Positions 1,063-57,091 of a DNA stretch of 64,000 nucleotides are shown here, in pieces; the stretch's first letter is position 1, and every line of letters begins with the position of its first letter. The notes beneath the pieces are model-generated. The model ran no database searches. It was not told the DNA's origin and was given only the letters and a program-made list of their open reading frames with translations. Source of the stretch: Chara braunii (Eukaryota > Plantae > Charophyceae); contig BFEA01000039.1 of NCBI GenBank assembly GCA_003427395.1, positions 2,156,371-2,220,370 of the forward strand. Reading direction: 5' to 3'. A program made the translations under genes and the position numbers.

Positions 1063-2029
1063 ACCTTGTAGCCCTGGACAATTGCGATCTTGGTGCTGTC
1101 CCTTGTGATCGATGTCTGAGTCACAACTTTAGTGATTGCTCGGAGTTAAATGTTGGTTTCTATCGAACTACAGTTATTTTTTTAAATTAGATAGTTGTCA
1201 AACATTCTACTCAGAATCACGGGGCTACTACGATACGGAAGCAGTCCGCAATACTGTTCATAGGAGTAGCTACAAACTGCGGCTGTCCCTGTTGACTGCT
1301 GCATACCATTTGAGTACCGCTGAGACCATAGCTGACTGACTGCAGTCCGCTATGCGACGGTGACTGGGCTTGGGGAAAGGTGGCTGCTGCCGCAGCTCAG
1401 TAGAATAGTGGCTGAGGAGGTTAGTGCTGTGATTCAGGAGGTCGGCAGGGAGTGGACGTCGACGATTGACTGCAGAGAGTTGACCAAGCTGACACACTGG
1501 CTGCCATTGCGGGGCCCTGAGGCGAATTAAGATATCAACGCCCTCTCCGGTGAGCTTGAGAGCACCCCTCATGTATCTGAGAGTCTCAAAACCATCTCTT
1601 CCTATCCTTCTTACTCTAAGTCTGGTCTTGTTCTGAGGGGAAGGCGGCAGGCGGGATTGCAACTCGTAGGACCGCATCAAGACTCTGTGGGGAGTCCACC
1701 CACCGATTGCGGGAGCTCTGCCGGAGCCTAGGCGAGGCTCTGGAGGCAGGGAACAGACAGGTAAACCATTACTTTCCCTCTATATACCCGAAGTTATAAC
1801 CCGTATTTTTATTACCAGATGCATCTTTGACTAAATATATGGTGATCAGCCCTATCTTATTTTTTGTTTGACTTCAGAAGACTGAACCAGACTAAATAAA
1901 GGAATGTTTGTGAAGTCTCAGTTTCAGTTTTGTTGTTTGTATGAACTCAGACTGTTAAAAGAAACTTCATTTGGGGGAAAGGCAGGATGGGGGTTTGTTT
2001 TGCTTGATGATTGACCGGGTCATTAAGGC

Positions 2030-2970
2030 TGGGGAGTCCCCATAAGTTTGGGGAACGCCAACGCTTTGTTTTATCTTGGTCTTGCATAGAGAAGTTAGAC
2101 CCTTCTATAAGTTTAGGGGGTCTCATTACTCTGAAGGCTGGGATGTCCCCATAAGTTTGGGGAGACCCAGTGATATGGTTTGCATGGAGGGTCAGGCTGT
2201 TCTGTAAGTTCAGGTGGCCTGATTGCTCTGACCTGTGAGGGGTTTGATTGTGCTTGACTTTCAGGGACTCAGGGTGCTCAATAAGTTTTGGTGTCTTGGG
2301 TTGCTTTGTTTTCATTGGGATTTTACTTATTTTCTTTGGTTTTGGAACGAGGAGACCGAACTGTTCTGTAAGTTCAGGTGACTCAGTCTCTTCCTGCTCT
2401 TTATTCTGAAGAATTAATCTTGGCAAAGAGGTAGACCCTTCTGTAAGTTCAGGGGGGTTGACTAGATGCCACACGCATAATGGCTCAGATAGAAATGAAT
2501 CTGGCAGAGAGTTAAGACCCTTCTGTAAGTTCAGGGGGTCTGGCTCAAAGCCTCGCACATGCTGGAACCCAATGGTTATAACTTGGCTATACTTTATTTC
2601 TACTCTATCTAAGAACGAGCTAATCAGACTGTTCTATAAGTTTAGGTGGTCTGACTATAGCCGTATCACAACTTGAAGAGAGTACAACTAAGAATATAAT
2701 TGATGGTAAACTGGGGAAGGCTGAAAGTAAGTTAGTTCAGTCATATGCAGCCTTAGAAGACAAGGGTAAAGATAAGTATATATAACTTGAATACTTTAAA
2801 CAGTCCTGGGCGACTAGAGTGGTCTAGTCATGTGCCCAAAGAAGAAAAAGTAGTTGTGCCATCTGTTTGTGTATATTTGGCCAAGTCAGAACGCTCTATA
2901 AGTTTAGGTATTCTGACTCTAGGCCTGGCTAAGTTGAGCTGTTCTGTAAGTTCAGGCGGTCTGACCTATC
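2030..2970 (+). repeat. Array of ~11 stem-loops with loop R-TAAGTT-Y in LTR A (also 10805-12020 in B and 34595-35345 in C)
   Basis: ATAAGTTT or GTAAGTTC is repeatedly flanked by self-complementary arms, e.g. TCCCC/GGGGA, AGACCCTTCT/AGGGGGTCT, TCAGGC/GCCTGA, AGTCAGAA/TTCTGACT. Confidence 0.8.
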
Positions 2971-3249
2971 CCTTATGTAAGCTGGGTATAATGGGTTAAA
3001 TCGTTGAGAGGTTATGAACTATTGTTTGTTCAAGTTGAGTTTGGGGATGATGAGAGTACTTACCTTTGTGGTTTGGCTTGCATGTGGCTGAGTGAGGCTA
3101 CTACTTGGTCTGAGTTTCAGTTTGATAGGTAGTCGCTTTAGTCGCTCGCCACGTGCTAGAGCCATAAGAGTTAGTTTCAATTCCTGCATTTTCTGAGCTA
3201 AGTTTTTTCTACTTAGGTCAATTCTTGCATTTTCTGGGATTTTTTCTTA

Positions 3250-4060
3250 TACTTGGCTTTGTATAAATCTTGCAAGGCACTTTCTCTACAGAAAGCGCTG
3301 CCGAAATTTCTACAAAGCCAAGGAGTTAGTCAAAAGTTTGGCTTGTCAAAGCTTGACTTGTCTTTTTATTATATCTGACTTCGTAAAAATCTGGAAAGCT
3401 TCGTTTTCTAAAGGGAGTGCTGCCCAAATTTTTACTAATTCGGGGAGTTAGTCAAATTTTTAAACTTCCCAAAGTTCAACCTGTCTAGATTTTATATATG
3501 GCTTAGTTAAAATCTGGGAAGTCTCATTTTCTAAAGGGAATGCTCCCAAATTTTTGCTAATTCAGGGAATTAGACAAAATTGAACTTTGGCAAGTCAAGG
3601 TTGCTCTCAAATTCTGAACTTAGCTTTGTGTAAATTTTGGATCGACACTTTTTTAAGGGAAGTGTTGCCGAAATTTCTGCAAAGCTAAGAAGTTAGTTGA
3701 ATATTATCTAAAGTTGAACTCAGATTGTCTTTTGAGTTCATATCTGACTTAGTATAAATATGGAAAAGTCTCCCTTTCTAAAGGGAGTGCTGCCCAAATT
3801 TCAACTATTTAAGGAAGTTAGGCAGAATTTGACTTTCTAGAGTTAGAAATTATTTCTGCTTTATATCTGACTTAGTATAAATCTGGAAAGCCTCTCTTTC
3901 TAAAGGAAGTGCTGCCCTAATTTCTACTATTTCAGGGAGTTAGACAAAATTTTGATTTTCCGGAGTTAGTAATTGTTTTGTTTTTTTATCTGGACCCATC
4001 TAAATACTGGAAAGACACTTTTCCTACGGGAAGCGCTGCCGAAATTTTCTAAGTTAGAGG
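3250..4060 (+). repeat. ~120-bp tandem repeat (~7 units), each with a ~70-nt fold-back; fewer units in B (12315-12730) and C (35630-35950)
   Basis: Recurrent GCTGCC(G/C)AAATTT...GGAGTTAG. Arms CTTGGCTTTGTA (3252-3263) and TACAAAGCCAAG (3311-3322). Confidence 0.8.
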
Positions 4061-6831
4061 AGATCGATTATATATTGACAGGTGACGATTTTGATAGTCC
4101 ACTCCGACTAAGGAAAAACTACCGAATTGTTTAGAGGTAGGTTTGGAGATAGTTAACTAAGAGGATTTGGGTAAGATCAGGATATGAAGATTGTTTCCCG
4201 TGAACTTATAGGTTTAACCTGGAACATTGATCTCTCATGTGTTACAGGTCTTTTTGATCGTTTGATTCAAGTGCAGGACTAGACTCAGCTTGATCCCTTG
4301 AGGGTCGTCATCTGTTATCACTGATAACAGGTCGGTTGCTGATTCGTCGGTTTACGACTGAATTCCAGCTCACCCTCCACACTCAACCTAAAAGGCTTTA
4401 GCCCTGATGACTTCTTTTTGTTTTATTATGGTTTCACCCAGACTTTTATTGAATGACCATCTAACAAAGGTACTGAGTACTTAATTAAGGTTGGTTGGAC
4501 AGGAGGTTAGGGCTTGCATGGTTAAAGCAAGGGGTGTGAGTGTTGAAGATGGTTGGGGTAGACTTCGTGTAGTGTTTGGGCTGCCGATTGACTCGTTGAT
4601 GTGAATTGCAGGTATGTGCTAGGAATCAGATTCTGAATTTAGTTGCCTGCGATCACATATGTGCGCATGGCTGTGAGGGACTCCAATAAGACAATGAGAA
4701 GTGATCGTCGCATGTTTCCCCCTTATATATATATATATATATATATATACATGGGTGTACGTAGGGTGAATGTCTGCATGGGTTAAGGGGCCCAGTACAA
4801 AAGGGGATACCCAGAAGGTAAAACTGAGAGACCCAGGGATGACCTCTCCGTTTATTTTTGCTTTGCTTTTTGAGGATTCTCTTAGTCGGACGTTGGTCCT
4901 GGGTCGGGATTCAAGGTCCTTGTCCAGGACATCCCAAGCCCTAGGCTCTGCAGGGGAGGGGTTTTCCCTCACGGAGAGCCTATTTGCCTTGCCTACCGAG
5001 ACGCTCAGACCAAGGGCCGGAGGTCTCGTAGCAGCTGCACAACTATTCCTTCAGCCGTGCAATGTCGTGAAGGGTTAGACCCTCACGACACTTCGAGTCT
5101 GACACTTGAGTGTCATAAGCGGTACTCGGATCCACGAGGGACCCCTTGATTATGGGCACTACATAGTACGCCATCATCGCGACTGCTTGCGCACGCTTGC
5201 ATTGCGAGTCGATATGCGATAGCCCTGCGTCCGCGCGGTTTTATATTAAGTCTCATGCGCGATGCCTATCCGAATTCCGCATTGGAAAGTTATGGGACGA
5301 CCACCGAGGGGCTAGGAGCGTTGTCGCGTTGCTTGTGTGATGTCGTTTCGTAAGTGTGTGTGTGTGTGTGTGTTATTTTTGTGTTCGTAAAGTGGTGTGC
5401 GCGTGGTGTGTGCGATGCGTCCTAGTCGACCGACGATGAACCGCGCTTGGGACCTCAGCCCCCCAAGGTGCCGGTTCGTGTGCGGATCCGATAGAGGCGT
5501 ATTACCGCGCGTACCCCCTATGCTACAGCGAACGAAAAACGCCCTCGGCTGGTCCACCTCTGTGATTGCAAATGATTAGCTTTCGTACTCTCGACTGGTA
5601 GCTCGACAGGGATACGCCTACCGAAGAGAGGTGACAACTCCCTTAAGGTGTAGGTAAGTCGTGCCTCACGTAGGCCCTATCCTGTCGTAGGGGCTCGCGA
5701 GAGGTACGGCTGGCGCATTCGGCCGAAGCGGCTTGCGGAAGCTCTATACATATATTTGCGACAAAGGAATTAAACCAACTCCTGCGTGACGCGGCCGGGA
5801 GGGTCCCGCGCTGCCTCGTGTGGTGCAGGACCGATGCGCTCGACAAAGTGAGGGGACCACGACCTTGCGGATCTGGCGGTGATTCTTTTTGGGATATTGG
5901 AGAGATTGTCGTATTCTCTCTGTGTTGTCCCACAGAGGGTTTGTAAATGCCTTTTATGTGTGACAGACCTTTGCGTACGTCCGCAGTAGGCCTGTATTGT
6001 TGCGACACCGCATCGAGCCACTTGTGCTATTCTTGGGGCATCTATGAGAGACCCAACTAGGGGTATAACTGGCATCACTGAGGCGCAACCCTCAGTGTTG
6101 GCTGCTGATCAGCGCAAACTGACAACGGGCCCACGTCTCGCCAGAAGGGGTAAAGACTTAAAAGGGTGTGGCCACCCAACAGGGTTTTACTTGCCGCGGG
6201 ATGGCGTGGGATAAGAGTCGAGTCTTTTTGGAGTCCTGATTGAATATTTATCAGGAGGAAAAATCTATCGTGGCGCAATCTGCGAGGGCACTACCGCTAA
6301 AATAACAAACGCGGTGGGCTGTAGATTTCACACGATCACCCAAACTAAGATCGGTCAAGATGGAGACCTTGCCCTTCTGTATTAGACTGCAGGAGGTGTG
6401 TTGAGATAAGATTTATATATATATGTTTGATTGTGAGAATTATTTGAGGGAGGCGAGAGTGCCTTCTAAGGTCTCGGCTAGGGTCCCCGTCCCTCGTTAT
6501 GGCCCTGCGTGCACGGTAGAGACTAGGGACACTTAACGAGAAGCTGGCATTTGTCTAAGACAAAGGAGAGAGGACAGTTGAGGAATCCATTTTAAGACTT
6601 ATGATGTAGTATAGCGATGAGTATCCCACTGTTCTAGTATCAGGAAAATGGAGGTCCAGGTTGGAATCCTGGCTGCATAAAGTTATGTACGGGTTGATGT
6701 AGACCTCGAACCTAAGTCTGTCGGCTGATCGGATTGGTTCCTTTCTCGTCAGCACGTGGAGTTTCGGATGAATTCATAGCTTTCTGATTTGGCGAAGCAA
6801 CGTCCTCGTCGCTTAATATGGTCCGGTAAGT

Positions 6832-9800
6832 TGTCGGTGCGAATACCCTTACAAGGGTATCCACCCTGTTTTTTGCAAGCAACTGAAAATAAGTTTGGTT
6901 TAAAGTTTAGGTATACCGTGCGAGGCGAGGCTGCGTCTGTAGTTTAGGTTGACTGGATGGTTGACTAACATAAAGAGTGTGTGGGCGCCCAGATTTGAGG
7001 CGCGCGTGATCTTTTTATTTATTGATGATTGAAGAACCGTCGTGATCGTTGGTCGGATTTTTATTTTTTTTTATTAAGTTAGGGATTAATTGGATTATGT
7101 CTCGACTGATTGAAGCGCTTGCTTGTGACTTGTGCATACATGTGGAGAACGACATTGACAATGAGGCGGCCTTGAAGTCTTCTCAGTAAGGTTCGCGTGT
7201 CGCATAGTATCCATTTTATTTAGTTGCCTGTGATAACTAGACCGAGCTTTGGGCCTAGCACTATTGGTTATGGTGTCGGACTTTCAACGGGGAGATTTAG
7301 GGATCAAGATCGAGCGAGGACGACGCGGGGATATCAGAGTAGCTAGGAGATCGAACGGTTGAGGGTCCGACATGACTATCCCCCTTGGTTTTGCCATCGA
7401 CAGAGTCAAGTCCTAGGTATTTTAATAGTTTTATTGTCGTCTTTATTTATTTATTATTTGGCTCCGACATTTCTTGACTTCAACGCAATCCTGGATTTTG
7501 GGGACATAACGACGGTCGAGAACCTTGAGCGCCGGCCTTCCTTGGTTAACTTACGGGTTCCAGTGTGTTTGGGATGTTGGCGAGGTTCCTTTATCTTGTC
7601 CGCCTTGGGAGCACGGGCTGAGGAATTTAATATGTATGCGAGTCGACGGGTGATTAGCCCACGAGGATAAATAAAATTTGAGTAGCGTGAGGCCTTAGCA
7701 GACGTACCGCCCACCAGCGGCAAGTCTGTTGTGAAAGGGTTGAGCGTGTGCCTGTAGATGGGGTTACAAAAGATAGCGGGCCGTGCCTGGGGCACGGTGA
7801 GACGGCCGCTGTCCACCTGTGGACCCACCTCTACGTCGGTCTTTAAAGTTCTCATTCAATATTTGCTACTACCAACAAGATCAGCACCGGGAAACAACTT
7901 TACCCAGTGCTGGAGGCTCTGTGCCTGCCTACTTTGCACGAAGTTGGAGTCACGGTGACCAGGAGAGGAGGACGATATTGGCCTGTAGCATTAGGACCAA
8001 GCTTGTTCGAAGGGGTCGATCACTGTACCTCCCCTCTGGTCCTCTCCCCCTATGAACGTTAGCAGTCTCCGCTCAATGCTGTTCAACGGGGACCAACGGC
8101 GTATCTTTGGATAGCTGGGCGCGAAGTTACCCACAAAATACCTTCTGACCGTAGGCGGAAGGTGGAATGCTATGACGGGGCCGAGAGGTAGATGTTGGGT
8201 TGGCTCATATGAGGACGAGTGGAGCCGGCAGAAATGTTGGAGAGCAGAACTTCGGGCGGACTTAGGCATAGGGGCAAGACAGTAACCGAACTATGAGGTC
8301 GCTGGTTCCCTTGGAGGTCCTGGCGCTGGATAGTTAAATTCGGCCGCTATTGCAGGTCGCACCAACGCAATAGCGAGCGTGACGAACGTAGTGAGGAACC
8401 CGTGAGTGAACCCGGATGAAAATTTGTGTCGGGTGCTCTTGCAACGTCGAGGGAAAGAACAACTATGGTAGATAGATAAAAATCGATGATCCCACGTGTT
8501 GCTGAATGAAAACGGGCGGGGAAAGAGCTGATCGTGGTTTTTTTGGCTTAGGCGAATTCAATCGTTCTGTTAGATTTAGTAGTAATTTAGTGGTTTGGTT
8601 AGGATAGGTGTTAGAGGGTGCGTGAATGCAGCAGGGGTGATGGAGTTGGCTATGGAAGGAGACGTTATCTCACTCGATTCTGAACAGAATCGGGCAAGGA
8701 AAGATGCAGGTCGGGGGTTTTAGCGGTGGGCGATCTAGATTTTTAGGTTAGATTTGGACAAGGACTAGCGAATTAGGAGTAAAGAGGAACGTGCCTGCGT
8801 GCAAGCTATGGAGGAGGTAGTTAAAAGAGGTTGAATCTCGGTCGTTCTTTGATGGATTGCGACAAAATAAAAGTCTACATAGAGCCTGATAGAGGTTTTC
8901 GGGGTAGGCGACCCCGAATATGATCTTAGTTTAGTTAGGAAGTTAGTGGGAGATGAGTTAGAGAAAGAAGAGGTGCGCGAGTAGAGTCGGGTGGAAGAAG
9001 AGAGAGTATGGCGGGGGTGAAAGGTACGATTTGCCACCCGATTCTCCATGGAAACGAGTCAGAAAACATGCTAATCTTGGGTCTTTGGCCATTACGAATT
9101 AGATGGGAAAGACTAGTTTTGAAGATGGAGCGTAGGATCGAATGCTATGATGAGTATAGGCTGCGCCAGGGGAGTAGGTTGTTATTGCATAAGTATGGAA
9201 TAAACCTACCGTCATTCTAGGGAAGATTCATTCCGATTTTTATCGCAGATGTAGGGTGAACTTACCTGACTAAGTCGACTAGTGTTTACGAAGAGGCATG
9301 CTTGTTGAAACTCCTGCGACAAAGAAGTGCAAGATTGCACCCTCCTGTGTATATTATGAGACAGAACGAGCGAACCGGTATGAGGGGCTAGGCATATCGA
9401 TAAAGGGGGTCGAGATGAGAGAAGAGAGGGAGAAGGAGCCATGCACACTTACCTGACCGCATCTGATGAAGCCCCGACGGAGGATGAAATTTTGTTTTGT
9501 GCCTTGGCTAGCAGTCAGGAGGGGCTGCTCACGGGGTGCAGCTGTGCTTGCTGCCACACCCACAGCCGGGTTGATGCTGTCCGTGGTCACTGATCGTTTG
9601 GCAGACTAAGACATGCAAGATTAAGTATGAATGTGCTGCGCAGTCAAACTGTGAATGACTCGATCCGGACTTGTCATTTAGTTACCCGTATTCGGCCAAG
9701 GTCGTGGGCAGATTCGGAAGAGTGGAGTATCAACAGGAAAGAGAGGGAGAGAGAGAGAGATGTTTACAGATAATCGAGTGGGTGGATGTGGTTGACTGAG

Positions 9801-12800
9801 GAGGATCGTGTGGTGTACTTACGTTGTGCCGCTGGAGCTCCTCCGGAGACATGACTGGCGATGCGAGATGAGTCTTAAATCAGGCTACGGTACCAGACTA
9901 CATGGCAAGGTTGAAGACTTGCCTGTTCATCGGTGCGCCGCATGGCNTCTAGGTAGAAGTAACTTTGGTACAGCCACGCTGTTCGAGACTGATCTGATGA
10001 CCGGTATGCTACTCATCCTGTCGACCAAGATAGAGCGAATCCAGCCACGAGTTGGGTGCTTGTCGGTGTTTGGTGAGGGCTGCACAACCAGATACGGGAT
10101 ATTTGGGACAAGTGAGCATTGAGAAAGGGGTTGCAGGCATGGTTAGTTTCCGGTGTATTATTCCTCTCACCAGCCTGTGAGAGAGGGAAGACCAGTTGTG
10201 ACAATGCAGATTTAGCTATTAGCGACTGCACCGGTCGTCCATCTGTACAAGGTGGATGGAGGTCAACGGTCAATGGTATGGCTTCAGTTTGACCAGACCT
10301 GTTGGCCACCATTGCGGGGCCCTCATGCGCATGAAGGTACCAAGGCCCTCTCCTGTATCTCGAGAGTCTGAAACCCCTCCTTCTGCCCTTCTTAATCTAA
10401 GTCTAGTTCTGTTCTGAGAGGAAGGCAGCAGGCAGGATTGCAACCCGTAGAACCGCAACAAGACTCTGTGGGGAGTCAGCCCTCCGATTGCGGGAGCTCT
10501 ATCAGAACTAAGGAGGAATCTTGGAGGCAGGAATTTGAAAGGCAACCATTGCTTTCCTTGTATAAACCTAATTATAACCCATAATTGTAGTCATAACTAT
10601 GTTTGACTGAGTATGTTGCCTGTCTCCTTATCTTGACTTTCAGTTTGACTTTCATGACACAATTCAGACTAAGTAAAAAAATGATTGTGCAAATTCAATT
10701 TCAGTTTTTGTTGTCTGACTAAAAGCAGATTGTGGGATTGCATCTGGGGGAAGGATGGGAGGAAGGCAGTATTGCGTCTGTTTGACCAGGTCAACCTAGG
10801 ATTGGGAGAGTCTCCATAAGTTTGGAGGGCTCAGTGCTATGTTTATTTTGATTGTTTGACGGAAAAGACATGTTACCATAAGTTTGGGTGGTCTGGTTGC
10901 TTTGACTTGCGAGGGCTGAATGTGATTGCCTTTTCAGGGACCAAGCATTTTTTCATAAGTTTGGATTATTTGGTCACCTTATTTTTTTTTGGTTTTCTTA
11001 TGTTTATTAGTTTCTTCTTGTTTTATTATGAAAAGAAAGCTTAGGCGACAGACTCGACAAGTTCATATAAGTTTGGGAGGTCTGGTCTGAAGCCACGCAC
11101 ATGCTGTAACTAAAAGGCCAGATTTATTTATATCTTATATTATTTTACTTATGAACAAGTTAGTCAGACATTTTTTCATAAGTTTGGATGGTGTAACTAT
11201 AGTTTATCATAATTGAAGAGAGTACAACAAAAAAATTCCCATGAGAATTGAAAGTTGAAAAAATATTCCATAAAAAAAAGATCCTTCATATTTATATATT
11301 ATCATTCCAATGTTTGTTCAATTCTTAAAATTTCCAATTTAATTTGATAAGTTCCCGTCTAAATATGAGTTTTCTCCTCCAACTACATCTATTTGTTCAA
11401 GATGGAATGAAAGTCTGGACGAGTTTATGAAATGTTTTAGTTAGACTTTCGTTCTATTACAAAAAATATCGTTTAATTTAGATAATATTAACTTATTTAT
11501 GACGGAAAATCCTTACTTAGAATGGCAGTCCGATTAAAATATTTCATGAACTAATCCAAACTCTCATTCCATCTCTAGCATGCAGTTCAAATAAGAAGGG
11601 ATACCCCATTCTTAGAAGGAAAGTTTTCAAGTAAGATGAAAAATTTTAAAATTGGAATTAAATTTTTTAAGATGGAATGAAAATTTAAAATTTAGAATGT
11701 AATTTTATTCTAGAATGATTATTTAATTCTGGAAAAAATTTATGTTGTATTAATTAAGAATAAATATGTGGTAAGAAGAGGCAAGCTGACCCTCAAACTA
11801 AGTTGATCGGTTAGGTCATATGCCTCCTTACAAAATTAAGGGCGGATATATATATATATATATATCGTCAAATATATATAATTTGGATACTTAAACAGTT
11901 CAGAGCGACTAGAGCGGCCTAGTCATGTGCCCAAAGGAAAGAAAAGTTGTTGTGCAATGTGTTTGTGTATATTCAATGACTGAGTTAGGCAGGTTCCCAT
12001 AAGTTTGGGTGATCTAGCTTTATGCCTTATGTAAGCTGGGTAAAAGGGTATAAATCATTGAAAGATTATGAACTATTGTTTGTTAAGAATCGTAAGATGA
12101 CTTTGGGGGTGGGGAGAGTACTTACCTTCGTGGTTTCGCCGTCATGTGACTGAGTAAGGCTACTACTTGGTCCGAGTTTCAGTTCGATAGGTAGTTGCTT
12201 TAGTTGCTCGCCACGTGTTAGAGCCATTGGAGTTGGTTTCAAATTCTTGCATTTTCTGAGATAAGTTTATTTTTACTTAGGTCAATTTCTGCATTTTTCG
12301 GTATCATTTATTATACTTGGTCTTGTATAAATCTTGGTAAGCCACTTTCTTTACGGGAAGCGCTGCCGGAATGTCTACAAAGCCAAGGAGTTAGTCAAAT
12401 TTTGTCTTTTCAAAGTTCAAATTTTTTTGACTTTTTTGCTTCGTAAAAATCTGGAAAGTTTTTTTTTTCTATAGCGAGTGCTGCCCAAATTTTTGCTACT
12501 TTAGGGAGTTAGACAAAATTAGACCTTGAGAAGTCAAAGGACAAAATTAGACCTTGAGAAGTCAAAGTCATTTTAAATTCTAAACTTAGCTTTGTATAAA
12601 TATTGAAATAACACTTTCTGTACGGGAAGCGATGCCGAAATTTCTACAAATCTAAGGAGTTATTATAAATTCTGAGAAGACACCTTTCCTATGGGAAGCG
12701 GGGACGAAATTTTCTTAGTTTAGAGGAGTTCGATTATATTTTGACAGGTGACAATTCTGAAAAATTCACTCTGTATAGACGATATTTTGCAAGGGTCTAC

Positions 12801-14566
12801 CGTTCTTTTGACACTTGCTTAGAGACATACTTTGGCTTAGTTAATTAGGATGATTTGAGTGAGATCGTGATATGGGGATTATTTTCTATGGACTTATAAA
12901 TTTAGTTTGGGGATTGACCTGTCTTGTCTTACATGTCTTCTTAATCGATTGATTAAGGATTTGAGCTAGATTCAGCTTGGTCCTACGAGGATCATCTTCT
13001 GTTATCACTGATAACCAGTCGGTTGACGATTCGTCGATTTACGACGCTATTCCAATTCACTCTTGCCACTCAAGCTAAATGCTTTAACCTTGTTATTTGA
13101 TTTGTTTTGTTGTGTTTTCGCTCAGACTTTATTTGAATGGCCATTTAAAGAAAAATACTAAGTATTTCATTTTGAGAGTTGCACAAAGAATGAGGCTTGT
13201 ATGGTTAAAAGCAAGGGGTGTGAGTGCAAAAAATGGTTGAAGTTGACCCCATGTAGTGCATGGATTTTTGGTTGAATCTGTGATTTGATTGCAAGTATGT
13301 TTGGTGATTCAAACTCTGGTTTTGACTGGTTGCGCTCACATACATATATATATGGCTGAGAGGAGTCCCACTATGGTTGTGAGATGTGATCGTCACATAC
13401 TTATAACCCTCTATATATAAGTAAATATATAAGCCTTGAGTGTTTCGTGCGGCTTCTTTTGACCGCGCGTAAGGGTTAAGTTAATTATGGTTTCGAGAAA
13501 AAAAAGGATTTTCAATGTTATCCGTTGTTTTTTTTTTAGTTTTTTATAGTTGGACGTTGTAGTCCGTGGCAGTCGTCAAAGTCAAACCCCTTGATTTCTC
13601 TCCAGGACCTAGATAGCGAAGCTGGTCTCCAGGGCCATAAGAGACGATTGCCACCACAAGTATGAACCTGTGTACCACACACTCTGCACTGAGTACAGAA
13701 GAGGGTGTGGTTCTCAACCGCACTTGGCGGTTGTCCAGCGTTGAGAGATCATTCTCTCAAGGCGTGGTTGTCCAGCGTCGAGAGATCATTCTGTCAAGGC
13801 ACGTGTCAGCTGACACTTGAGTGTCGAATGCGACCCTCGAGATTAAAGAGGACCGCATGAGTATGGTTATCACATAGTACGCCATCACTGCGACCTCTTG
13901 CGTACGCTTACATTGCGAGTCGATATGAGTTAGCCCCGTGTCCGCGCAATTTTATACAAAGTCTCGCGCGCGACGTTAATCCGATTCCTGCATCGGAAAG
14001 TTATGGGATGGCTACTAAGGGACTAGGATTGTTGTCGCATTGTTTGTTCAGTGTCGTTCTGTAGATGTATATGTACGTGAGGGATGCATGTGTTTTTATT
14101 TTTATGTTCTTTATTGTGGTGTGCGCGTGGCGTGTGGGATGCATCCTAGTCGACCGGCGACGAGTCGCGCTTGGGACCTCAGCCCCCTAAGATGTCGGTT
14201 CGCGTGCGGGTCGGATAGAGGAGTAATATCGCGCATACCCCCTATGCTATGTCGGACGAGAAACGCCCTCGACTAGTCCACCTCTGCGATTGCAGCTGAC
14301 TAGCTTTCGTACTGTGGGCTGATAGCTCGGCGGGGATACCCCCACCGAAGGGAGGTGACAACTCCCGTAAGGTGGAGGTAAGTCGTGCCTCGCGTAGGCC
14401 CTATCCTGTCGTAGGGGCTCGCGAGAGGTATGGCTGGAGCACTCAGCCGGAGCGGCTTGCGGAAGCTGCATATGCATTTGCGACGAGGATTTAGACCAAC
14501 TCCTGTGTGACGAGGCCGGGAGGGTCCCGTGCTGCCCTTTGCGGTGCCGGACCGATGAGCTTGACA
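6832..14566 (+). mobile_element. Giant LTR copy B (subfamily 1, 7735 bp), probably a 3' LTR
   Basis: Starts TGTCGGTGCGAATACCCTTACAAGGGTA and ends GATGAGCTTGACA. Colinear with C. Preceded by TCGCTTAATATGGTC, the same motif found upstream of 3' LTR D. Confidence 0.82.
11231..11753. mobile_element. AT-rich foldback/MITE-like insertion in LTR B
   Basis: Absent from A and C at the homologous site after GAAGAGAGTA(C/T)AA. Internal ~57-bp inverted repeat, 11400-11456 vs 11519-11575. Confidence 0.55.
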
Positions 14567-16149: not shown

Positions 16150-17159
16150 TCTTATCTGACCTCTTGAAGTTAGGCACCTTGAACATGAAAGGAAAGGCGG
16201 GTTGCGCATACGTTATACCAAAGCAGAAGGATTTATTCCGTTTCATACTATTTCTCATACTTTCAATGAACCAACGATTCGTATCTTTAAGAAGATTTCG
16301 AAGACTCTGAATTTGTTGTTTAAAGCATTACCTCAAGGTTCTCATTTTAATTTACCTTCAGTAAGACATCTGGTAAGCAGAGTGATGACAGTAAATTCGC
16401 AGATGCAATGAGTTGGAATGGACGTCAAGGTGATGGCAGCATTGTACGACATAAAATACATGTTTCTAGGTTGTCGCATGATGAAATTTCCAGTGCATTG
16501 GATTAGATTCTTGACTATTTTCAGGATAGAAAATCTGTCGGAGTCAATTCGAGAGCAAAGGGAGCACCCTTACGGAAAAAGGAAGGAGAAGGATGGTGGT
16601 GAGTTGAGTTGCATGATATTAGGAAGTTTGTTAGATTCGAGTTGTCACACATGTAATACTATACACGGGCTTCTAATATTTTGTTGAAGCAGGTTGTGGG
16701 TATCCCCAAGGGAAAAAGTATGAGCCCGCTGCTTGCATGCATTATGTGTGCGCATGCAGAGTGGTGGTTTCTTGTCTCCTTGGGGTCAGACCGAACGTTG
16801 GTGGGCGGAGTCAGACTAATAGACGATGTTTCTGTCTTTTTGGCTTTTCAATATAGAGACTTGGGTCCATTGGCAAAGTCAATCGAATCAGGAAACTATT
16901 TGAAAAATGTTACCCTAAGCTATTAACTCTGAAACAAACTGATGATAAAACGGGGGCTTGGGACTTTATGAGATGCAAAATGGAAGTTGGACCAGATTAC
17001 CTGTACCTATGTAGCATTTAGAGAACCAAGAATGAGGACACAATTTGGACCTTGTGATAAATTGTACTGAAATCGGGACAAGAGTATCAGTCTTGGTCCT
17101 GCGAAAAGCAGAAGTTGGAGGGTATTACAGGGTGGCTTCATTGCACGGACCATAATACC
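16150..17159 (+). pseudogene. Penelope-like reverse transcriptase core, frameshifted and inverted relative to its element
   Basis: Motifs AYVIPKQKDL, LYDIKYMF (motif A), QVVGIPKGKSMSPLLA (motif B), RLIDDV (catalytic DD) and WDFMRCKM. Confidence 0.85.
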
Positions 17160-26443: not shown

Positions 26444-28083
26444 TGTCGCGTGCGACGGTCCCCCGCCCTGATGGGGAGCGCTGAACCTCACGGTCGTGTC
26501 ACGCAGGATTTATTCCTTGAAATAACAGTAAGTCACCACTCCGACCGTGCGCGCGTTCTATATCTCTCACGGCGCCCTGCGACAGGTCGGAACGTCGCGA
26601 GGTACAACTCACCTCTACGCGAGAGCTGTCACCACCCTCTGGTAAGCGTATCCCTGCTGTTTTTACATGCCTTTGTAGAGGTAGGTCGACCGAGGGCGTT
26701 TTCTCGATCGCCGTAGCATAGGTAGACGCGCGGTTGAACGCCTAAGACTGACCCGTTTACGTGTCGGGCATGGGGGTGCTGATCTCCCGGACCGACTTAC
26801 AATTCAGGTCGACTCGACTGACGATCTTTCGCGCATATAAATCCTATTTTATCTCAACTTATCCCATAAATTATATATATTATATAAGTCCTTCCAAAAT
26901 ATATACATTCATGACAAATATAGTTCAAAGGCTGAGACTGAAAAGGCAAGGAGATGTCTTTTACATTTTTATACAAACAGAGACAAACATCAGAATGAAC
27001 AGAGCATCACAGACAAAAGTAGGTTCATGGCCTGTCAAATATGAATAAAAAATAAAAGATAGGCTCATGGTCTTTTAAAGAAACAAGATATGATTAAGGT
27101 TTTTTCGTCTTTGCCAATTGTCCTAATATATTCAACATCAAAGGGGTAAAGGTTGAGAACCCAAAGGTTACGATTCGACGAAATGTCTGAGTCGAGGCTC
27201 AGGTAAGCATAAACAAATGCGAGTTGAGTGAATAGCACGTGGTTGGTTGTTTTACTGACCTGCAAACAAGTGTCAATCGCATTACACAATCCTAGCAGAG
27301 TCAACCATTCATTCACTCTCACACACATTACACTTACGCTTTCAAATCCCTTTGCCAGACATTCTCTTTTCGACTCAGTTATTCAAGGACCTTTTTTTAT
27401 CAAACTTAGACCTTTCAGATGCTGACTCAAAAATAAAAAATTTCATTTAGTGCAAAGGTAGATGCAAAGTGTGGGTGTAAAGGGTGAGTGAAGGTTGAGT
27501 TGGTAAACCAACCTGTTTCTATAAGGCAACAACATGCAGTCTTGCATGGACTCATAATGAGTCTTCTTGAGTAAGATGACCTGAAAATACACACAGGTCA
27601 CAAAATCTCAACACCTCTCTCACTATTGCTCTATACGAAGTTCAGCGCTGTGAATTTCAATTTTTATCGGTGGACAAAAATATAATCTGATCAAATGTGA
27701 GTATGAAGTAAAAAGACTCCGACAGAAGCCTTCACCTCATACTTACTCAAGCAGTAGGATATCCTACCACTTGTTTTAGTATAATTGGTTCAGACCTAGA
27801 CAGACCATGGGATGACCCAATGAGTACCCCATCTTCAGTCTGTCAACCTAACTATCTAAGATATGTACACACGAAGAGACGAGTAATAAGATGTTCCTAA
27901 TCCTGGAGCCTTATCCTGTCACTCGTCCTACATCCATACATCAATCAATCTGCACTCACACTTGCTCTAGGCCAGCGTGCGCGAAGGTGATCACGTCTCT
28001 AGCTAGGAACGAGGTTCACATGCATCTCTCTGATTGCTCAGGCAATCAGATCAGAACAAAGGTGTAGGTAATGAAACAACAAC

Positions 28084-28138
28084 AAATAATAATAATAAAA
28101 ATAGTAATAATAATAATAATAATAGCAATAATAATAAC

Positions 28139-28186
<48 letters not shown>
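28084..28186. repeat. (AAT)n microsatellite; further (AAT)n, (CA)n and (CT)n tracts throughout LTRs D and E
   Basis: Directly visible; others at ~30053, 37955, 39247, 39836, 51757, 52854, 53927, 54425 and 56166. Confidence 0.95.
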
Positions 28187-28187
<1 letters not shown>

Positions 28188-30053: not shown

Positions 30054-30138
<85 letters not shown>

Positions 30139-30365
30139 TAAGGAATACGAGTGTGAACGTTATACAGAAAACCAAATTGCGAAATCACACATATGTCCAC
30201 AAGGTCGTGTCCAAGCAGAGAGAGTACAAAAGCACTGAGAACCCATCCATATACAGCAATACAATGAAGTAATGAGCCGATGCTCAAGCCCGTAGGCCAC
30301 ACCAACACAGTACCCAAAGTCGCTCCTCTATGTCTGGTGCCCAGTGCCCAACCTGCTCTAAACGT

Positions 30366-33300
30366 TGTCGATGCGAATACCCTTACAAAGGTATCCACAC
30401 TGGTTTTCGCAAGCCACAAAAAATAAGTTTGATTTAAAGAATGAGTATTTCGCGCAAGCACGCGGCTACGTCTGTGGCTTACGTTGACTGAATGGTTGAC
30501 TAGAACAGAGAGTGTGTGGGCGCGCAGAGTTGAGGCGCTCGTGATCATTTATTTTTGATTGATGACTGTGAAAGTCGGCGTAGATGCCGGCCGGATTTTC
30601 ATTTCTGATTAACCGAGGATTAGAAATATTCTGTCTTGTAACAGATATGCTTGCTGGTGATTTGTGCGTATATGCGGAGGACGACATCGACAACAACGTG
30701 AATTTTCGAATGTCTTGGTAGGACTGCGCGTTGCTCGGTGCTAGTTATGTTAGGTATTCGTCAGAGCTAGTCCAAGACTTGGGCCTAGCATTATTGGTTA
30801 TAGTGCCAGACTTTCATCGGAGAAATTCGGGGATCGAGGACGAGCGACGACGACGCGGGGATATCAGAGTAGCGTGAAGAAACCGAGGGAGTGGGGGCCC
30901 GACGGGGCTATCCTCCTTCGTCTTGCCAACGACGGCGTCAGGACGGAGCTAGTGTTTTCCTCCTTTTCTCGTTCGCCATGTTCTACCGATTCAAAACTTC
31001 TAAATATTTTTTTAATTATTTATTGACATATTATTTTTATTATCTGGTTCTGGCGTTCCTTGGCTCAGATGCGACGCCAGATTCGGAGGCCATCACGACA
31101 GTCGAGGACCCTGAGGGCGCACCTCGTCCGGCGGGTCCGCGTGTTGGAATACTGGCAAAAGTCCTCCATCACGTCGTGGTTGAGAACCACGGCGTGGCCA
31201 AAGTTTGAGTGCGTAATTGCACTTGGAGGGGGAAAGAGGGTCAGTAATGCAGGATGTATATGACCTACATTTCGGGTTCAATGAGGTCGTGTTGGGGTGT
31301 GTTGTATTCACGGGCTTACCTGAAGCGCAATTTTTATGGTGGCACATAAGTAACCCCGTGATGGTATTTCGGGAAACCCCGTAGCAGCTACATCCGTGCT
31401 CAAACCACCAATGAGGGAACATACAGGGACCATACCAACCAAAAGATGCGATACCTGCCACAGTGGGTGGACGACGATGGCAAAGGATCAGCCGGTAGCA
31501 TCAGGGCCGGACTTCTTCGATGGGCCGGTCACAATGCCTCCCTTTCGATCCCCTCCTCCTGTGAGTGTCCAGCGGTCGTTGCCCAATGCCAATCGAGGAA
31601 GACTGACAACATATCTCCGAGAGGTGGGTCAAAGTCGTCATCCGACACTGCGCTAGCAGCTATAGGGAAGGAAGGAGCCTGCAGCACTGATGTTGCATGC
31701 AGGTTGACCACCGGGCGGAAGGGCGAAAGGGCAGTCGAGCCAGGAAAAGGCTCGCTTCCTGGAACACCGGTCAGCGTCGCTAAGCAGAGGAGGAGAAAGG
31801 ACGCTACCGGGGCAAGCACTAACTAGAGGTGTCAGGAGCTATGCTGCAGACGACAGAAAGCGGAGGTGAGAACGGGCTTGGAGGGCCGTCTGTGCGACAC
31901 TGCGACTGCACAAACAAGGAGGGCTTGCGCTAAATTTATGAAGAATGAAACTAGTCGGGCGCTGCGTCGGGATGCGAGAGGGAGAGACAGATAGCACAGC
32001 CATGGCGGGACCAGGAAGCATATAACTCGCCCGTCTTTGACGAAAACGGGCGGGGAAAGGTGCTAACCCGAGTTTATCCGGCAGGGCGAATCGAGTGGTG
32101 GGGTTAGATTGGCGAAAAAGTTAGTGCCTAGGGAGTTAGAGTAGAAAAGTAATGCGCGGGGACATGGCGGAGTGAGGGAGGAAGAAGGGGAGATGAACGT
32201 GATATTGCTCATCTCTGAGCGGATTTGGATGAGGGGAGGTTCGTTGTAGGGGTTTTTCGTATGGGCGACCTCAAATCTGAGGTCAGTTGTAGTGTTAGAT
32301 TAGTAAGATGGGAGGTTAGTGAGAAAAGTAGTGTGCGAGCTACGGAGGAAGGAGGGACGACGAAAAAGGAAAATCGAGAGCTCGCCCGATTCCTTATGAA
32401 ATCGAGCGGGGAAAGATTCAAAGAGGAGGTTTTGAGGTAGGGCGAAGTGAATTGTGGAAGAAGATTTAGAAAAAGGTTAGTGGATTTAGAGTTAGAAGAG
32501 AGGATGAACCTAGACTGATGAGTGTTCCGGGTGCATGCGCAGGGATGCTGAAACTGAGAGGGACAAACAGGGCGTAGTCTAGGAGAAGCCACTCTCTCAA
32601 TCCTCCCGGGGTTTTGGTCCCGGGCGAGTCAGAATATGAAGTCAGATTGAGTAGAAAGTTAGTATAGGAAAAGGTTAGTATGAAAGGGACCGCGCAGAGA
32701 GCGGGTGGGAATGGATATGCCGGATAATTGAAAGACAGTGATCTCGCTCGATTCGGTGTAGAATCGAACGAGGTATGAAGGGGGGGGGATGGCGGTGTAT
32801 TGCGGGAGCTTCGGAGCACTACGGTTCTATACGGCGAGATCAAATCCATGGTCTATGGGGCTGTTCGACTGCTACGGCCTCCTCGGGTTGCGCTTGTGGA
32901 GGGAATAAACAGCGAATGCACCTACTCGCACTCTTGTGAAATATTCGTTTTCGATTTCCACCTGCTAAACTGGCAGGACAACCACAGGCAAGCGAGCAGG
33001 GACGGGGCCTTCTCAACCAAAGCTAATAACGGATCTATCTGCAGGGGTATCGACCAAGGAACGATAGCTGTTGGGAGGAGAGTCTGAGTGTACCAGGCCA
33101 ACCACAAGTCGCTTATGCGCTGGGACGCGCAACACAGTCAGGCTTAGCCCAGGCGGGGCATTGTTATGAGGCAATTGCTGCTGTATCTCTGCTGCCANNN
33201 NNNNNNNNNNNNNNNNNNNNNNNNNNNNNNNNNNNNNNNNNNNNNNNNNNNNNNNNNNNNNNNNNNNNNNNNNNNNNNNNNNNNNNNNNNNNNNNNNNNN

Positions 33301-36300
33301 NNNNNNNNNNNNNNNNNNNNNNNNNNNNNNNNNNNNNNNNNNNNNNNNNNNNNNNNNNNNNNNNNNNNNNNNNNNNNNNNNNNNNNNNNNNNNNNNNNNN
33401 NNNNNNNNNNNNNNNNNNNNNNNNNNNNNNNNNNNNNNNNNNNNNNNCACAAGTCGCTTATGCGCTGGGACGCGCAACACAGTCAGGCTTAGCCCAGGCG
33501 GGGCATTGTTATGAGGCAATTGCTGCTGTATCTCTGCTGCCAGCTCGACACCTCGTGGCATACTGATGTTCTTGGTGTTGGGGCTGCACACCGCTGTGCC
33601 TTCTGGTCACCACGACAGTCTTTGCAACAACATAATCGTATGCCTTGCTGTTCATTATGACTTCGTCGTCCACCATAGCAGTTGCGGAGATCGCTGTGGA
33701 CTGCAGCACTACTTTTGGTACGGTCGCTGTTTTGAACAGTATGACTACAGGTCCAATTGGGAGGTGAAATTATGATATAGAGGGAGTGGTTAGGTTGCAA
33801 GAGGTTGAGTGCGGCGAACTGCTGCTGCGTCGGTTGACTGAGCGCAGACCGCTGCTGCATCTATTGACTGTGCACGAACAACCGTTGTCTGTTGTTCATT
33901 GTTGCAGACTGCTGCACACTACCGCCGGCTATTGCTTGCTGTTACAGAGTGCTATGCGGCGGCGATTGGGTTGTTAAACTAGACAAGTAGCGGGTCAGTG
34001 CTGCGATTTGGGAGGTCGTTGGGGGATCGACGACAGGCAACTGACTTCAGTTCTGACCAAGCTGCTACTGCTTGGCCATCATTGCGGGGCCCTCAGGCGA
34101 GAGAAGATAACAAGGCCCTCTCCTGAGAGTTGAGTTGTCCCCTTCTTATATCTCGAGAGTCTGAAACCCCTTATCTTCTGCCCTTCTTACTCTCAGTCTA
34201 ATCTTGTTCAGAGAGGAAGGCGGCAAGCGGGGTTCCAACCCGTAGGACCGCAGCAAGACTCTGTGGGGAGTTAACCCACCGATTGTGGGAGCTCTGCCGG
34301 AACTTAGGAGGAGTTCTGGAGGTAGGGAACCATCAGGTAATCCATCTCTATTTGTATGACCCACTATACCCATGGTTGTCTATTCCCCCTGTAGTTTGAT
34401 TGGCGTATGCATGCCTGTCCCTATGATTTTTCTTTTCTCTTCAGGACATAACCAGACTAAGTAAAGGAACGCATGTACAATGTCTGTTTCAGTTTCATTG
34501 TTTGACTGAAAGCAGATTGTGGGGTTGCATCTGGGGGAAGGGTGGGAGAAAGGTTATATTGCATATGTTTGATTGGGTCAACCAGAGGCTGGGCCAGTTC
34601 CATAAGTTTGGAAAGGATCAGTGCTATGTTTATTTTGAATTGCCTGGAGAACCAGACATGTCCCATAAGTTTGGGTGGTCTGGTTGCTCTGACTTGTGAC
34701 GGCTGTTTGTGATTGACTTTTCAGGGGCCAAGTGCGTTCTGTAAGTTCAGGTGCCTTGGTTACCTTGGTTGTTTTGGGTTTCCTCTGTTTATTTGGTTCT
34801 GAACGAGGGGGTCTAAGCCGTTCTATGAGTTTAGGTGGCTAGGCCTTTTCCTGCTTTATTTTGAGAAAATGAACTTGACAAAGGGCAGACCGTTCTGTAA
34901 GTTCAGGTGGTCTAGCCCAATGCCACGCACAGCTGGATCAGAGAGGAACGAATCAAGCAGAGAGTCAAACTGTTCTGTAAGTTCAGGTGGTCTGACTCAA
35001 AGCCCGCATAGGCTTGAACCCAAGGTTATAATTTGGCTATATTTTATTATTATTTTATCTATGAACAAGCTGATCAGACCGTTCTATAAGTTTAGGTGGT
35101 CTGACTATGGTATATCACAACCTGAAGAGAGTATAATTAAGAGTATAACTTAAGGTAACTTGGGCCGGCTGGGCATTGTTTCTATGATGAATGGCACAGT
35201 CCTACACCCACCTTGAAAATTAAGTTAAGAGAGATATATATATCTTGGTCATTTAAACAGTTCAGAGCGACTAGAATGACCTAGTCATATGCCTAAAGAA
35301 GAGACCATGAACTATTGTTTGTTCCATAAGTTTAAGTGCCCTGACCTTATGCCTTATGTAAGTTGGGTATAAGGGGTTAAATAATTGAAAGACCATGAAC
35401 TATTGTTTGTTCAGGTATACTTTGGGACGGTGAGAGTACTTACCTTTATGGTTTAGCCTGCATGTGACTGAGTGAGGCTATTGCTTGGTCTGAGTTTCAG
35501 TTTGATAGGTAGTTGCTTTAGTCGCTCGCCACGTGCTAGAGCCATAGGAGTCAGTTTCAATTCCTGCATTTTCTGAGCTGACTTTAATTTACTTAGATCA
35601 ATTCTTACATTTTCTGGGATCTTTTGTTATACTTGGCTTTGTATAAATTTTGGTAAGCTACTTTCTTTACGAGAAGCGCTGCCGAAATTTCTGCAAGTCC
35701 AAGGAGTTAGTCAAATTTTTAACTTGTCAAAGTTAAATTTGTCTAAAGTTTATATATGACTTAGTAAAAATCTGGAAAGTCTCATTTTCTAAAAGGAGCG
35801 TTGTCCAAATTTTTGCTAACTCAGGGAGTTAGACAAAATTTAACTTTGGAAAGTTGAAGACTATTTTTGTTTTCACATTAAGGCCGATATAAATTCTAGA
35901 AAGACATTTTTCCTACGGGAAGCGCTGCCAAAATTTTCCTAGTTTAAAGGAGATAGATTATATATTTGACAGGTGGCGATTCTGGCGATCCACTCTGTAT
36001 AGGGGAGATTATTTTAGGGTCTACCTTTGCTTTGGGCACTGCTTAGCAATAGATTTAGGCTTAGTTAATTGGGAAGATTTTGAGTGAGATCGTGATATAG
36101 GGATTATTCTCCAAGGACTTATAGATTTAGCTTCAGGATTGACATATCTTGTGTTACAAGTCTTCTTGATCAATTGATTCAGGATTAGAGCTAGATTCAG
36201 CTTGATCCTACAAGGATTATCTTCTGTTATCAGTGATAATAGGTCAGTTGCCGATTCGTCGGTTTACGATTCAACTCCAATCCACTCCTACCACTCAACA

Positions 36301-37751
36301 TAAAAGCTTTAGTCTTGTGATTTGAACTGTTTGTTGTGTTGTCACCCGAACTTTATTTGAATGGTTATTTAAAGAAAAGTACTGAGTATTTTATTTTGAG
36401 GAGTTGCATAAGAGTAAGATTTGTATGGCTAAAAGCAAGGGGTGTGAGTGCAGAGGATGGTTGAAGTTGACCCCGTGTAGTGCATTGACTTTTTGGTTGG
36501 ATCTTCGATGTGATTGCAGGTATGTTTGGTGATTCGGACTTTGGATTTGACTGTCTGTGCTTACATACATATGTATATGGCTGAGAGGAGGTCCACTGTG
36601 ACTGTGAGAAGTGATCGTCATATATTAGTAACCCTTTATGTATATGTAAATACATATGTCTTGAGTGTTTCGTGAGGCCTACCGTGACCGTGTGTAAGGG
36701 TTAAACAGATTATGTTTTTGAGAGAAGAGGGAGATTCTCTGTTGTCCTTTGCTTTTTAGAATTTTATAGTTGAACGTTGTAGTCCGTGGCAGTCGTCAAA
36801 GTCAAACCCCTTAACTTATCTCCAGACCCTAGATGATAGTGCTGGTCTCCAGGGCAATAAGAGACGATGGCCACCACAGGTATGAACCTGTGTAGCACCC
36901 ACTCTCCGCAAGGAGCAGAAGAGGGTGTGGTTCTTAACCGCACTTGGCGGTTATCCAGCGTCAAGAGATTTACCCTCAAGGATCGTGTTAGAGGATACTT
37001 GAGTGTCGAATGCGACCCTCGAGATTAACGAGGACCGCATGAGTATGGCTACTACATAGTACGCCATCATTGTGATCGCTTCCGTATGCTTGCATTGTGA
37101 ATCGATATGAGTTAGCCCTGCGTCCGCGCGATTTCATACTAAGTCTCGTGCGGGACGCCTATCCGATTTTCCCGTCATAAATTTATGGGATGGCTACTAA
37201 GGGACTAGGAGTGTTGTCTCGTTGTTTGTTTTGTATCGTTCTGTATTTGTATATGTACGTGCGTATGTGTGTGTGTTTTTGTTTTTATGTTCTTAGAGTG
37301 GTGTGCGTGTGGTGTGTGGGGTGCGTCCTAGTCGACCAACGACGGGTCGCGCTTGGGACTTCAGCCCGCCAAGATGCAGATTCGCGGGTGGGTTCGATAG
37401 AGGCGTAATACCACGCGTACCCCCTATGCTACAAGGAACGAGAAACGCCCTCGGCTGGTCCACCTCTCTGATTGCAGATGATCAACTTTCGTACTGTGGA
37501 CTAGTAGCTCGACGGGGATACGCTCACCGAAGGGAGGTGACAACTCCCATAAGGTGGAGGTAAGTCGTGCCTCGCGTAGGCCCTGTCCTGTCGTAGGAGC
37601 TCGCGAGAGGTATGGTTGGCGCACTCGACCCGAGCGGATTGCGGAAGCTCCATGTCTGTATCTCGATGAGGATTAGAGTCCAACTCCTGCGTGACGTGGT
37701 CGGGAGGGTCCCGCGCTTCCCATGTGCGGTGCCGGACCGATGCGCTCGACA
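30366..37751 (+). mobile_element. Solo giant LTR C (subfamily 1, 7386 bp) nested in LTR D
   Basis: TGTCGA...TCGACA ends. The flanks join seamlessly in the sister LTR E at ~54221. Confidence 0.9.
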
Positions 37752-39239: not shown

Positions 39240-39310
<71 letters not shown>

Positions 39311-39843
39311 CGCTACCTCACACCTGTAAAGTGAAATGTATGGTTCTGATTACAAGTGGCCTTCGAAGATAGACAGAGACGGTAACGCATGCAGGCGAGA
39401 AACAGCGAATGAATGGTTTAGGACAGGGAGGAGGTGATTGCGCCGTGCACATCAAGATGCAATCAAAGACTACATGCGATCATAATATACAACCACGACA
39501 TCAGAAAACGCATCATCGTCATGTCCTCCACTATTGTGCCTTCTTCTCAACGGAATCGTTCATATCTAGCTTTCGCCATGCTCTCCCTCCCGTCTTCCAT
39601 CACCCGCTCATCGTTCCCATCCGCCCCTTTCCCGCGCGTCATCTGTCTACTCCTGCGCAACCCCCTTTTCCACGCGATCGCCTTCCTCCCTGTGCGCACC
39701 TCCACCTCTCACACCGTACCTGGCCACGATGCCAGGCATGTTCCATTCAAACGGGAAAATCGATCCCCCCCCCCTGTCTCTCTCTTTTGCACTCTCTCTA
39801 TGGGTGCGTTCGCCTGCTCACTCTATATCCCTTCTTCACACAC

Positions 39844-39893
<50 letters not shown>

Positions 39894-40481: not shown

Positions 40482-40512
<31 letters not shown>

Positions 40513-51772: not shown

Positions 51773-51832
<60 letters not shown>

Positions 51833-52853: not shown

Positions 52854-52923
<70 letters not shown>

Positions 52924-53927: not shown

Positions 53928-53994
<67 letters not shown>

Positions 53995-54445
53995 TAAGGA
54001 ATACGAGTGTGAACGTTATACAGAAAACCAAATTGCGAAATCACACAGATGTCCACAAGGTCGTGTCCAAACAGAGAGAGTACAAAAGCATTGNGAACCC
54101 ATCCATATAGAGCAATACAATGAAGTAATGAGCCAATGCTCAAGCCCATAGGCCATACCAACACAGTATCCAAAGTCGCTCCTCTTTGTCTGGTGCCCAG
54201 TGCCCTGCCTGCTNTACACGCCTATCCTACGTACANCTGGTCCACGCAACAGGCTCACTTCGACCCTCGTAGACCAATGTGACTGTCAAAACCATAGCCG
54301 ACTCCTCTTCATGTACCAGGTACGTATCTCGTCACCCTCAATCAGACCTTGAATAACCCACTCTCGCCTCCTTCCCTGAAGACCACCAGATCACCCTTAT
54401 CATATTACAACTAGGATTAAAACATAATAGTAGTAATAATAACAA

Positions 54446-54542
<97 letters not shown>

Positions 54543-56163: not shown

Positions 56164-56238
<75 letters not shown>

Positions 56239-57028: not shown

Positions 57029-57091
<63 letters not shown>

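Follow-up and report, generated by a model that had tools for sequence, protein, structure and literature searches.

Three copies of one repeat family (A, B and C) in the genome of the charophyte Chara braunii carry, on their + strand, arrays of 6 to 11 hairpins with a near-fixed UAAGUU loop. The arrays lie in a 64,000-nucleotide stretch of contig BFEA01000039.1, referred to below as the window. The array is real, under selection and, apparently, uncatalogued. The explanation towards which we lean, with moderate confidence, is that it acts as a multivalent protein-docking site on the RNA of a very abundant non-coding mobile element.

Loops that stay fixed while their stems change freely and still pair are the mark of a protein that recognises a stem-borne loop. 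Under the docking explanation, the same-loop hairpins would be kept by selection on the + strand of the element, and a single protein species would recognise the UAAGUU loop presented by its short bulged stem, with avidity raised by the many copies of the docking hairpin. Because the element copies contain no recognisable protein, the reader would likely be supplied in trans. The likeliest candidate would be a mobilisation or packaging protein from an autonomous partner, and the second choice a host export or stability factor. If this RNA reading is true, an uncatalogued motif has been multiplied in a relative of the land plants, within one of its major repeat families. It would also point to a loop-reading protein, for which the array is a ready-made multivalent pull-down bait, and would offer a direct test of non-coding mobile elements capturing proteins in trans.

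Features of the three element copies, with positions counted from the first letter of the window
Feature	Position	Strand	Remarks
Hairpin array A, 11 units	2025..2970	+	loop clustering, folding, pairing tests, covariance model; kept-unit loops 2043-2947
Array A loop starts	2043, 2108, 2152, 2205, 2282, 2369, 2444, 2526, 2637, 2899, 2947	+	
Hairpin array B, 6 units	10799..12023	+	kept-unit loops 10817-12000; loops 10817, 10879, 10956, 11068, 11179, 12000
Hairpin array C, 8 units	34585..35350	+	kept-unit loops 34603-35327; loops 34603, 34666, 34742, 34826, 34898, 34978, 35087, 35327
Second array in A, six units of ~120 nt	3245..3959	+	long imperfect hairpins, two-sided changes
Second array in B	12310..12679	+	3 units aligned
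Second array in C	35626..35848	+	2 units aligned
Conserved block directly before array	1490..1765		also B 10295-10545, C 34065-34342
Conserved block directly after array	3040..3270		87-90% between copies
Copy B, whole	6832..14566		7.7 kb, TG...CA ends
Copy C, whole	30366..37751		about 7.4 kb including N gap, TG...CA ends, no target-site duplication
Right-terminal block of copy A	5099..5845		conserved, ends ...TCGACA
Empty paralogous site for insertion C	54205..54236		junction 54221/54222

Hairpin units and their likeness to known RNA motifs

We counted 70 occurrences of the hexamer TAAGTT in the window, where 42.9 +/- 6.0 were expected and none of 100 shuffles reached 70. The matches cluster on the + strand, in the three spans singled out by the initial annotation. 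Each match was folded in context and 25 hairpin units were kept, 11 in A, 6 in B and 8 in C, in agreement with the approximate counts (11, 6 and 8) given beforehand. Five exact + strand matches inside the spans formed no unit and were dropped (2728, 2930, 11348, 11799 and 35221). About 600 bp of AT-rich sequence (roughly 11250-11860) interrupts array B, and the match at 11348 lies in this insert. The unit at 34826 in array C has the variant loop TGAGTT, one base off TAAGTT, and the first four units of array A are a duplicated pair of units.

The units follow one design, in which a UAAGUU hexaloop caps an apical stem of 4 bp; below it come a single-base bulge on the 5' side and a lower stem of 6-8 bp. 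In a fixed register, the four apical pairs are standard in 96 of 100 cells, and the lower stem with its one-base 5' bulge is paired in 142 of 200. The description of stems that differ yet mostly pair, with a bulge that is often a U, was confirmed. The loop is closed by A-U in 17 of the 25 kept units and by G-C in 8, other closures being absent (0/25). Thus, the reported lack of mixed closures holds for the kept units but not for the dropped match at 11348, which has an A..C closure. The spacers had been called unique. Within one element they are mostly unlike each other, with 2 of 63 spacer pairs, both in A, beating all 200 shuffles, but between A, B and C they are clearly homologous. In the alignment of the three copies, the units stand at matching positions.

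A covariance model built from the 25 units recovered its training units, and no other match was better than E 2.2. In the whole window, there was no Rfam match at gathering score. At E up to 5, five weak matches were obtained in 1300-5900, none of them in array A, and four in 33450-37760, where one (35179-35261, - strand, E 3.3) falls between units of array C and none on a unit. As no Rfam family matches, the earlier statement that no known family fits the units stands. The papers listed in the literature searches, among which the Chara genome paper and repeat libraries did not figure, gave no description of the motif or of the repeat family; the repeat tables of that paper, or any repeat library, may already name the family.

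IRE, TAR and the Xist A-repeat were compared with the units by design, a sequence relation being tested through Rfam only. In the IRE array of the transferrin-receptor 3' UTR, one protein reads several hairpins that have hexaloops, variable stems and a single bulged base on the 5' side. The Chara array shares the hexaloop, the one-base 5' bulge, the variable stems and the non-coding location. However, the IRE loop is CAGUGN rather than UAAGUU, and the Chara units have a 4-bp apical stem, a bulge that is often U, a mobile element as carrier and no Rfam IRE match. HIV TAR and the MS2 and PP7 operators are alike in their short apical stem, bulge and fixed loop but differ in loop sequence. These hairpins exist naturally as single or few copies, MS2 arrays being engineered, whereas the Chara element has 6-11 spaced copies. 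The term "MS2-like", under which the array was initially described, is an analogy only. Xist A-repeat and CsrB/RsmZ-type RNAs also combine tandem same-loop hairpins, U-rich or variable linkers and avidity, with no sequence relation to the array; they are a host lncRNA or bacterial sRNAs, whereas here the carrier is a high-copy mobile element.

ENEs grip the poly(A) tail with U-rich internal loops. The UAAGUU units, which combine a single bulge with a fixed apical loop, have a different fold. The triple-helix ENE is reported from plant retrotransposons, Evade among them, as a structured RNA that aids mobility (PMC12501189). The ILS of the I factor is described as a retrotransposon RNA stem-loop that is read by Egl-BicD, thereby recruiting host machinery, and varies in stem sequence (PMC13186709). 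As described there, ILS-type signals require 3' bulges and two helices, upper and lower, each 6 bp or longer, and tolerate loop change. The Chara units, by contrast, have a fixed loop, an upper stem of 4 bp and a bulge on the 5' side.

Pairing, loop constancy and strand preference

Over the 12-pair structure, 79.3% of cells are paired, compared with 66.6% in shuffles (0/500) and 27-48% when the structure is slid, and 9 of the 12 pairs show two-sided change. Unguided RNAalifold predicted the four apical pairs only. Pair 4 is U-G in 15 units, C-G in 5 and U-A in 4. Among 49 differing apical pair comparisons, 24 were two-sided and all paired, 16 were one-sided and paired, and 9 were broken. In reads from other copies, one closing pair is altered at each of its two bases (2204 G>A and 2211 C>T), in 21/33 and 22/34 in X12 and at 36% and 25% in X1; the rates are similar on both sides and unphased.

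At matching units of A, B and C, the loops differ at 1 of 156 positions. The A-C alignment showed differences at 1/42 loop positions, 13/56 in apical stems, 39/117 in lower stems and 74/333 in spacers; stems change at the spacer rate and loops do not. Under neutral decay at 10-20%, 80-90 of 100 apical pairs would survive and 15-30 loop changes would arise, against the 96 and 1 observed. The loop served to select 24 of the 25 units, which makes its invariance partly circular. Altogether, the pairing and loop statistics support the proposal that selection acts on a single-stranded structure of the + strand with a fixed loop.

Copying between units inflates the covariation counts. Four fully paired types of apical triplet account for 21 of the 25 units, so that as few as three double changes, followed by unit-to-unit copying, could suffice. 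Homogenisation copies both arms at once and thereby mimics compensation. On these grounds the array might be a functionless, satellite-like by-product, in which a palindromic unit was duplicated and homogenised by gene conversion or template switching. The small number of apical types would fit such a history, as would the drift of B mostly to one apical type and of C to another, the clear two-unit duplication in A and the unit-skipping joints found in reads of other copies. We nevertheless consider it unlikely, because the loops are far better kept than the spacers (1/42 against 74/333), and because the lower stems of units U1, U3, U4 and U8 are unlike in sequence and still paired. Moreover, G-U greatly exceeds C-A in two separate arrays, a bias that strand-neutral palindrome repair does not predict.

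On the + strand of the UAAGUU array, this bias amounts to 61 G-U against 10 C-A (p 1e-5 against spacer composition), and to 31 against 10 when the two consensus wobble columns are left out (p 0.052 against spacer composition). Folded as RNA, the units had a mean z of -2.46 on the + strand and -1.84 on the - strand (p 0.026). Relative to shuffles, the whole of array A gave z -3.34 (+) and -3.94 (-), with 20 shuffles each, the + strand being no better. With DNA parameters, unit folding was weak and displayed no strand preference (mean z -0.99 on + and -1.17 on -).

These DNA values bear on the idea that the hairpins form in single-stranded DNA, where they would be recognised by the enzyme that mobilises the element, a tyrosine recombinase or an HUH transposase. 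Insertions by such enzymes are expected to lack a target-site duplication, as insertion C does. Weak, strand-neutral folding as DNA argues against this idea, together with the many G-T pairs, which suit RNA, and the location of the array about 3 kb from the nearest end rather than at a terminus; we regard it as quite unlikely. It is harder still to credit that the units are double-stranded DNA binding sites, forming an enhancer array in a U3-like region with incidental stems. Their fixed 8-bp core is repeated, and enhancer repeats are common in U3 regions. However, the flanks change in pairs rather than staying fixed, and the wobble bias is strand-specific, which makes this the least probable of the explanations considered.

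A second array lies just downstream of the UAAGUU array. It is unrelated to the UAAGUU units, and its number of copies varies by element. The consensus of 11 aligned units folded at -9.81 kcal/mol on the + strand versus -3.16 on the - strand. In this consensus 94.3% of cells are paired, with G-U 17 versus C-A 0, the structure having been predicted on the + strand, which favours that strand. G-U is thus favoured over C-A in both arrays, as the initial annotation had claimed for the + strand of the first, and the second array lends this strand preference independent support. Its role may be that of a further docking module or of a precursor for small RNAs.

Abundance, transcripts and surroundings of the array

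The summed depth of DNA contigs, which is not a copy number, was 240,000-1,100,000 over the terminal blocks and 7,700-57,000 over the array, single contigs having about 4-20. The family is clearly very abundant. Within 1065-4720, depth is greatest in the conserved block directly before the array, for DNA contigs as well as for RNA run X11. Patterns made from the array and the terminal blocks had no match beyond the window in metagenome contigs, and neither had a two-unit pattern in viral contigs nor a terminal-block pattern in prokaryote genomes.

In poly(A) libraries, family reads over 1065-4720 numbered 202 of 8.9 million (X11) and 4003 of 16.7 million (X12). Family RNA is present at a low level, almost all of it from copies other than A. 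Reads at least 99% alike to copy A were so few (1/202 in X11 and 26/4003 in X12) that they speak for transcription of the family rather than of copy A itself.

First mates in X11 lay mainly on the - strand, with a summed bin depth of 91 versus 12.5 over 1065-4720 and of 12.6 versus 0.95 within the array, where there were only about 15 reads; these and the following strand figures are sums made by hand over bin tables, from libraries of uncalibrated polarity. At the right end, first mates on the - and + strands were 27 versus 11 in X11 and 49 versus 23 in X13. X12 was unbiased over the array (158 versus 152) and biased in the opposite direction at 3017-4602 (907 versus 370). First mates on the - strand correspond to + strand RNA if the libraries are of the dUTP type. 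Under that condition, the suggested + strand transcription agrees with X11 and X13, but X12 gives a mixed picture. No RNA joints and no common start or end were listed for family reads.

Splice-site likeness raises another explanation, in which the units would serve host RNA processing, for example as U1 snRNP decoys or, within an intron or UTR of the element transcript, as signals for its processing. GUAAGU is the 5' splice-site consensus and is contained in the G-C-closed units, and donor-like motifs common to several copies are found around the array on both strands. One of these, a minus-strand motif that follows the array in each of the copies A, B and C (3059, 12121 and 35439), counts against the docking explanation. 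Nevertheless, a processing role appears very unlikely to us, because the G is present in only 8 of the 25 units, where it is paired in the stem, the 17 A-U-closed units are without GU, and no spliced RNA joint is among those listed.

Several further features surround the array. A possible intron of about 110 nt, with a + strand donor-like motif, a pyrimidine tract and an acceptor-like motif, lies just before it in A (1759-1877) and C (34335-34445); there was no spliced read for it among those listed. Conservation before the array stops exactly at a minus-strand ATG (1505-1510). A conserved hairpin of another design, with a related loop sequence, stands straight after the last unit (2978, 12032 and 35359). 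The other conserved blocks gave mixed signals in three-sequence consensus folds, which are too shallow to judge. Finally, a 228-codon minus-strand open frame across array A was rejected as a gene, having no Pfam match and no counterpart of similar length in B or C.

The carrier element

A, B and C are mostly 65-85% alike across their right 4.4 kb. B and C have a 580-bp left block in common, and their middle is poorly alignable. B and C start with TGTCG and all three copies end with GACA, giving TG...CA termini with a 6-bp inverted repeat. The end of the right-terminal block of A is a true terminus, because other copies continue from there into unrelated DNA, which tends to start with GCG. In DNA contigs this right end is a sharp boundary, with a loose-end agreement of 0.35-0.36 over 150 and 134 contigs. 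The left end of copy A was not found within the window.

Copy C sits inside a different repeat, of which the window contains a second copy that lacks the insertion. Neither of the two complete copies has a target-site duplication: the flanks of C join without duplication in the empty paralogue, and those of B differ from each other, with no empty site for comparison. Five ends were inspected by eye in both orientations for a PBS or PPT, and neither a TGG-start within 10 nt nor a purine tract was seen. gag and pol were not found in the element copies. The 78 ORFs from copies A, B and C and from the A-B interval gave no Pfam match at cut-off. Six read-through frames of B 6832-10433, the part of the elements covered by this kind of scan, gave none either. 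Of 94 ORFs, one reached a curated Pfam cut-off; it corresponds to a LINE-type RT fragment (60968-61894) and lies outside the elements. Neither a binding protein nor an autonomous partner was found in the window.

The LTR label of the initial annotation is unproven: C lacks a target-site duplication against its empty paralogue, and PBS, PPT, gag and pol were not found, so that the placement of the array in a U3/3' UTR is no more than putative. As in solo LTRs of Ty3/Gypsy, the ends are TG...CA with a 6-bp inverted repeat, but the carrier is without the 4-6 bp target-site duplication, PBS and PPT of an LTR element. DIRS-like elements make no target-site duplication. The carrier resembles DIRS, PAT and Ngaro in this absence (observed at one site, that of copy C) and has no long inverted or split direct terminal repeats; self- and cross-BLAST of the terminal blocks found no internal or inverted copy of either. 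Such repeats belong to DIRS and PAT as presented in PMC8557442. An autonomous partner of this type would encode RT/RNase H and a tyrosine recombinase; the six frames of B held no coding remnant. Most Replitron families, according to PMC10288648, also lack a target-site duplication, as C does, but they have short direct terminal repeats, whereas the carrier ends are inverted. LTR-like ends without target-site duplication thus match none of the classes testable here. The carrier may be a giant solo LTR or a recombinase-mobilised non-autonomous element.

The 1-kb interval between A and B (5846-6831) is multi-copy, and other copies show it joined to the left end; at least five of the contig pieces listed bridge the left flank of B and its left end. 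B may therefore be attached to an internal domain, a result that keeps the LTR reading alive; the interval itself might represent either such a domain or a preferred target.

Building on the docking explanation, a bolder and in our view doubtful proposal is that Chara has a high-copy, unclassified 7.5-kb non-coding mobile element, without target-site duplication, whose RNA scaffold of two hairpin arrays would out-compete the autonomous partner for the mobilisation protein by multiplying the docking hairpin, which would make it a naturally occurring tag of high avidity.

Other repeats were observed in and around the copies. A small palindrome opens the conserved right block (5100-5116 and 13811-13833), and in B and C it is followed by about 12 bases that resemble the left end of the element itself. 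The variable middle contains degenerate tandem repeats of about 200 bp (8480-9000 in B and 32040-32800 in C). A repeat of about 8.8 kb is present twice with 88-93% identity (26466-42304 and 50067-58917), its first copy being interrupted by C. In a neighbouring element, a decayed Penelope-like RT remnant (16591-17100) has a single match, to a Chara braunii protein (E 1.6e-18), whereas the other protein searches had no match. Finally, a 71-bp tandem repeat at 47268-47940 contains TAAGTT and is unrelated to the hairpin array.
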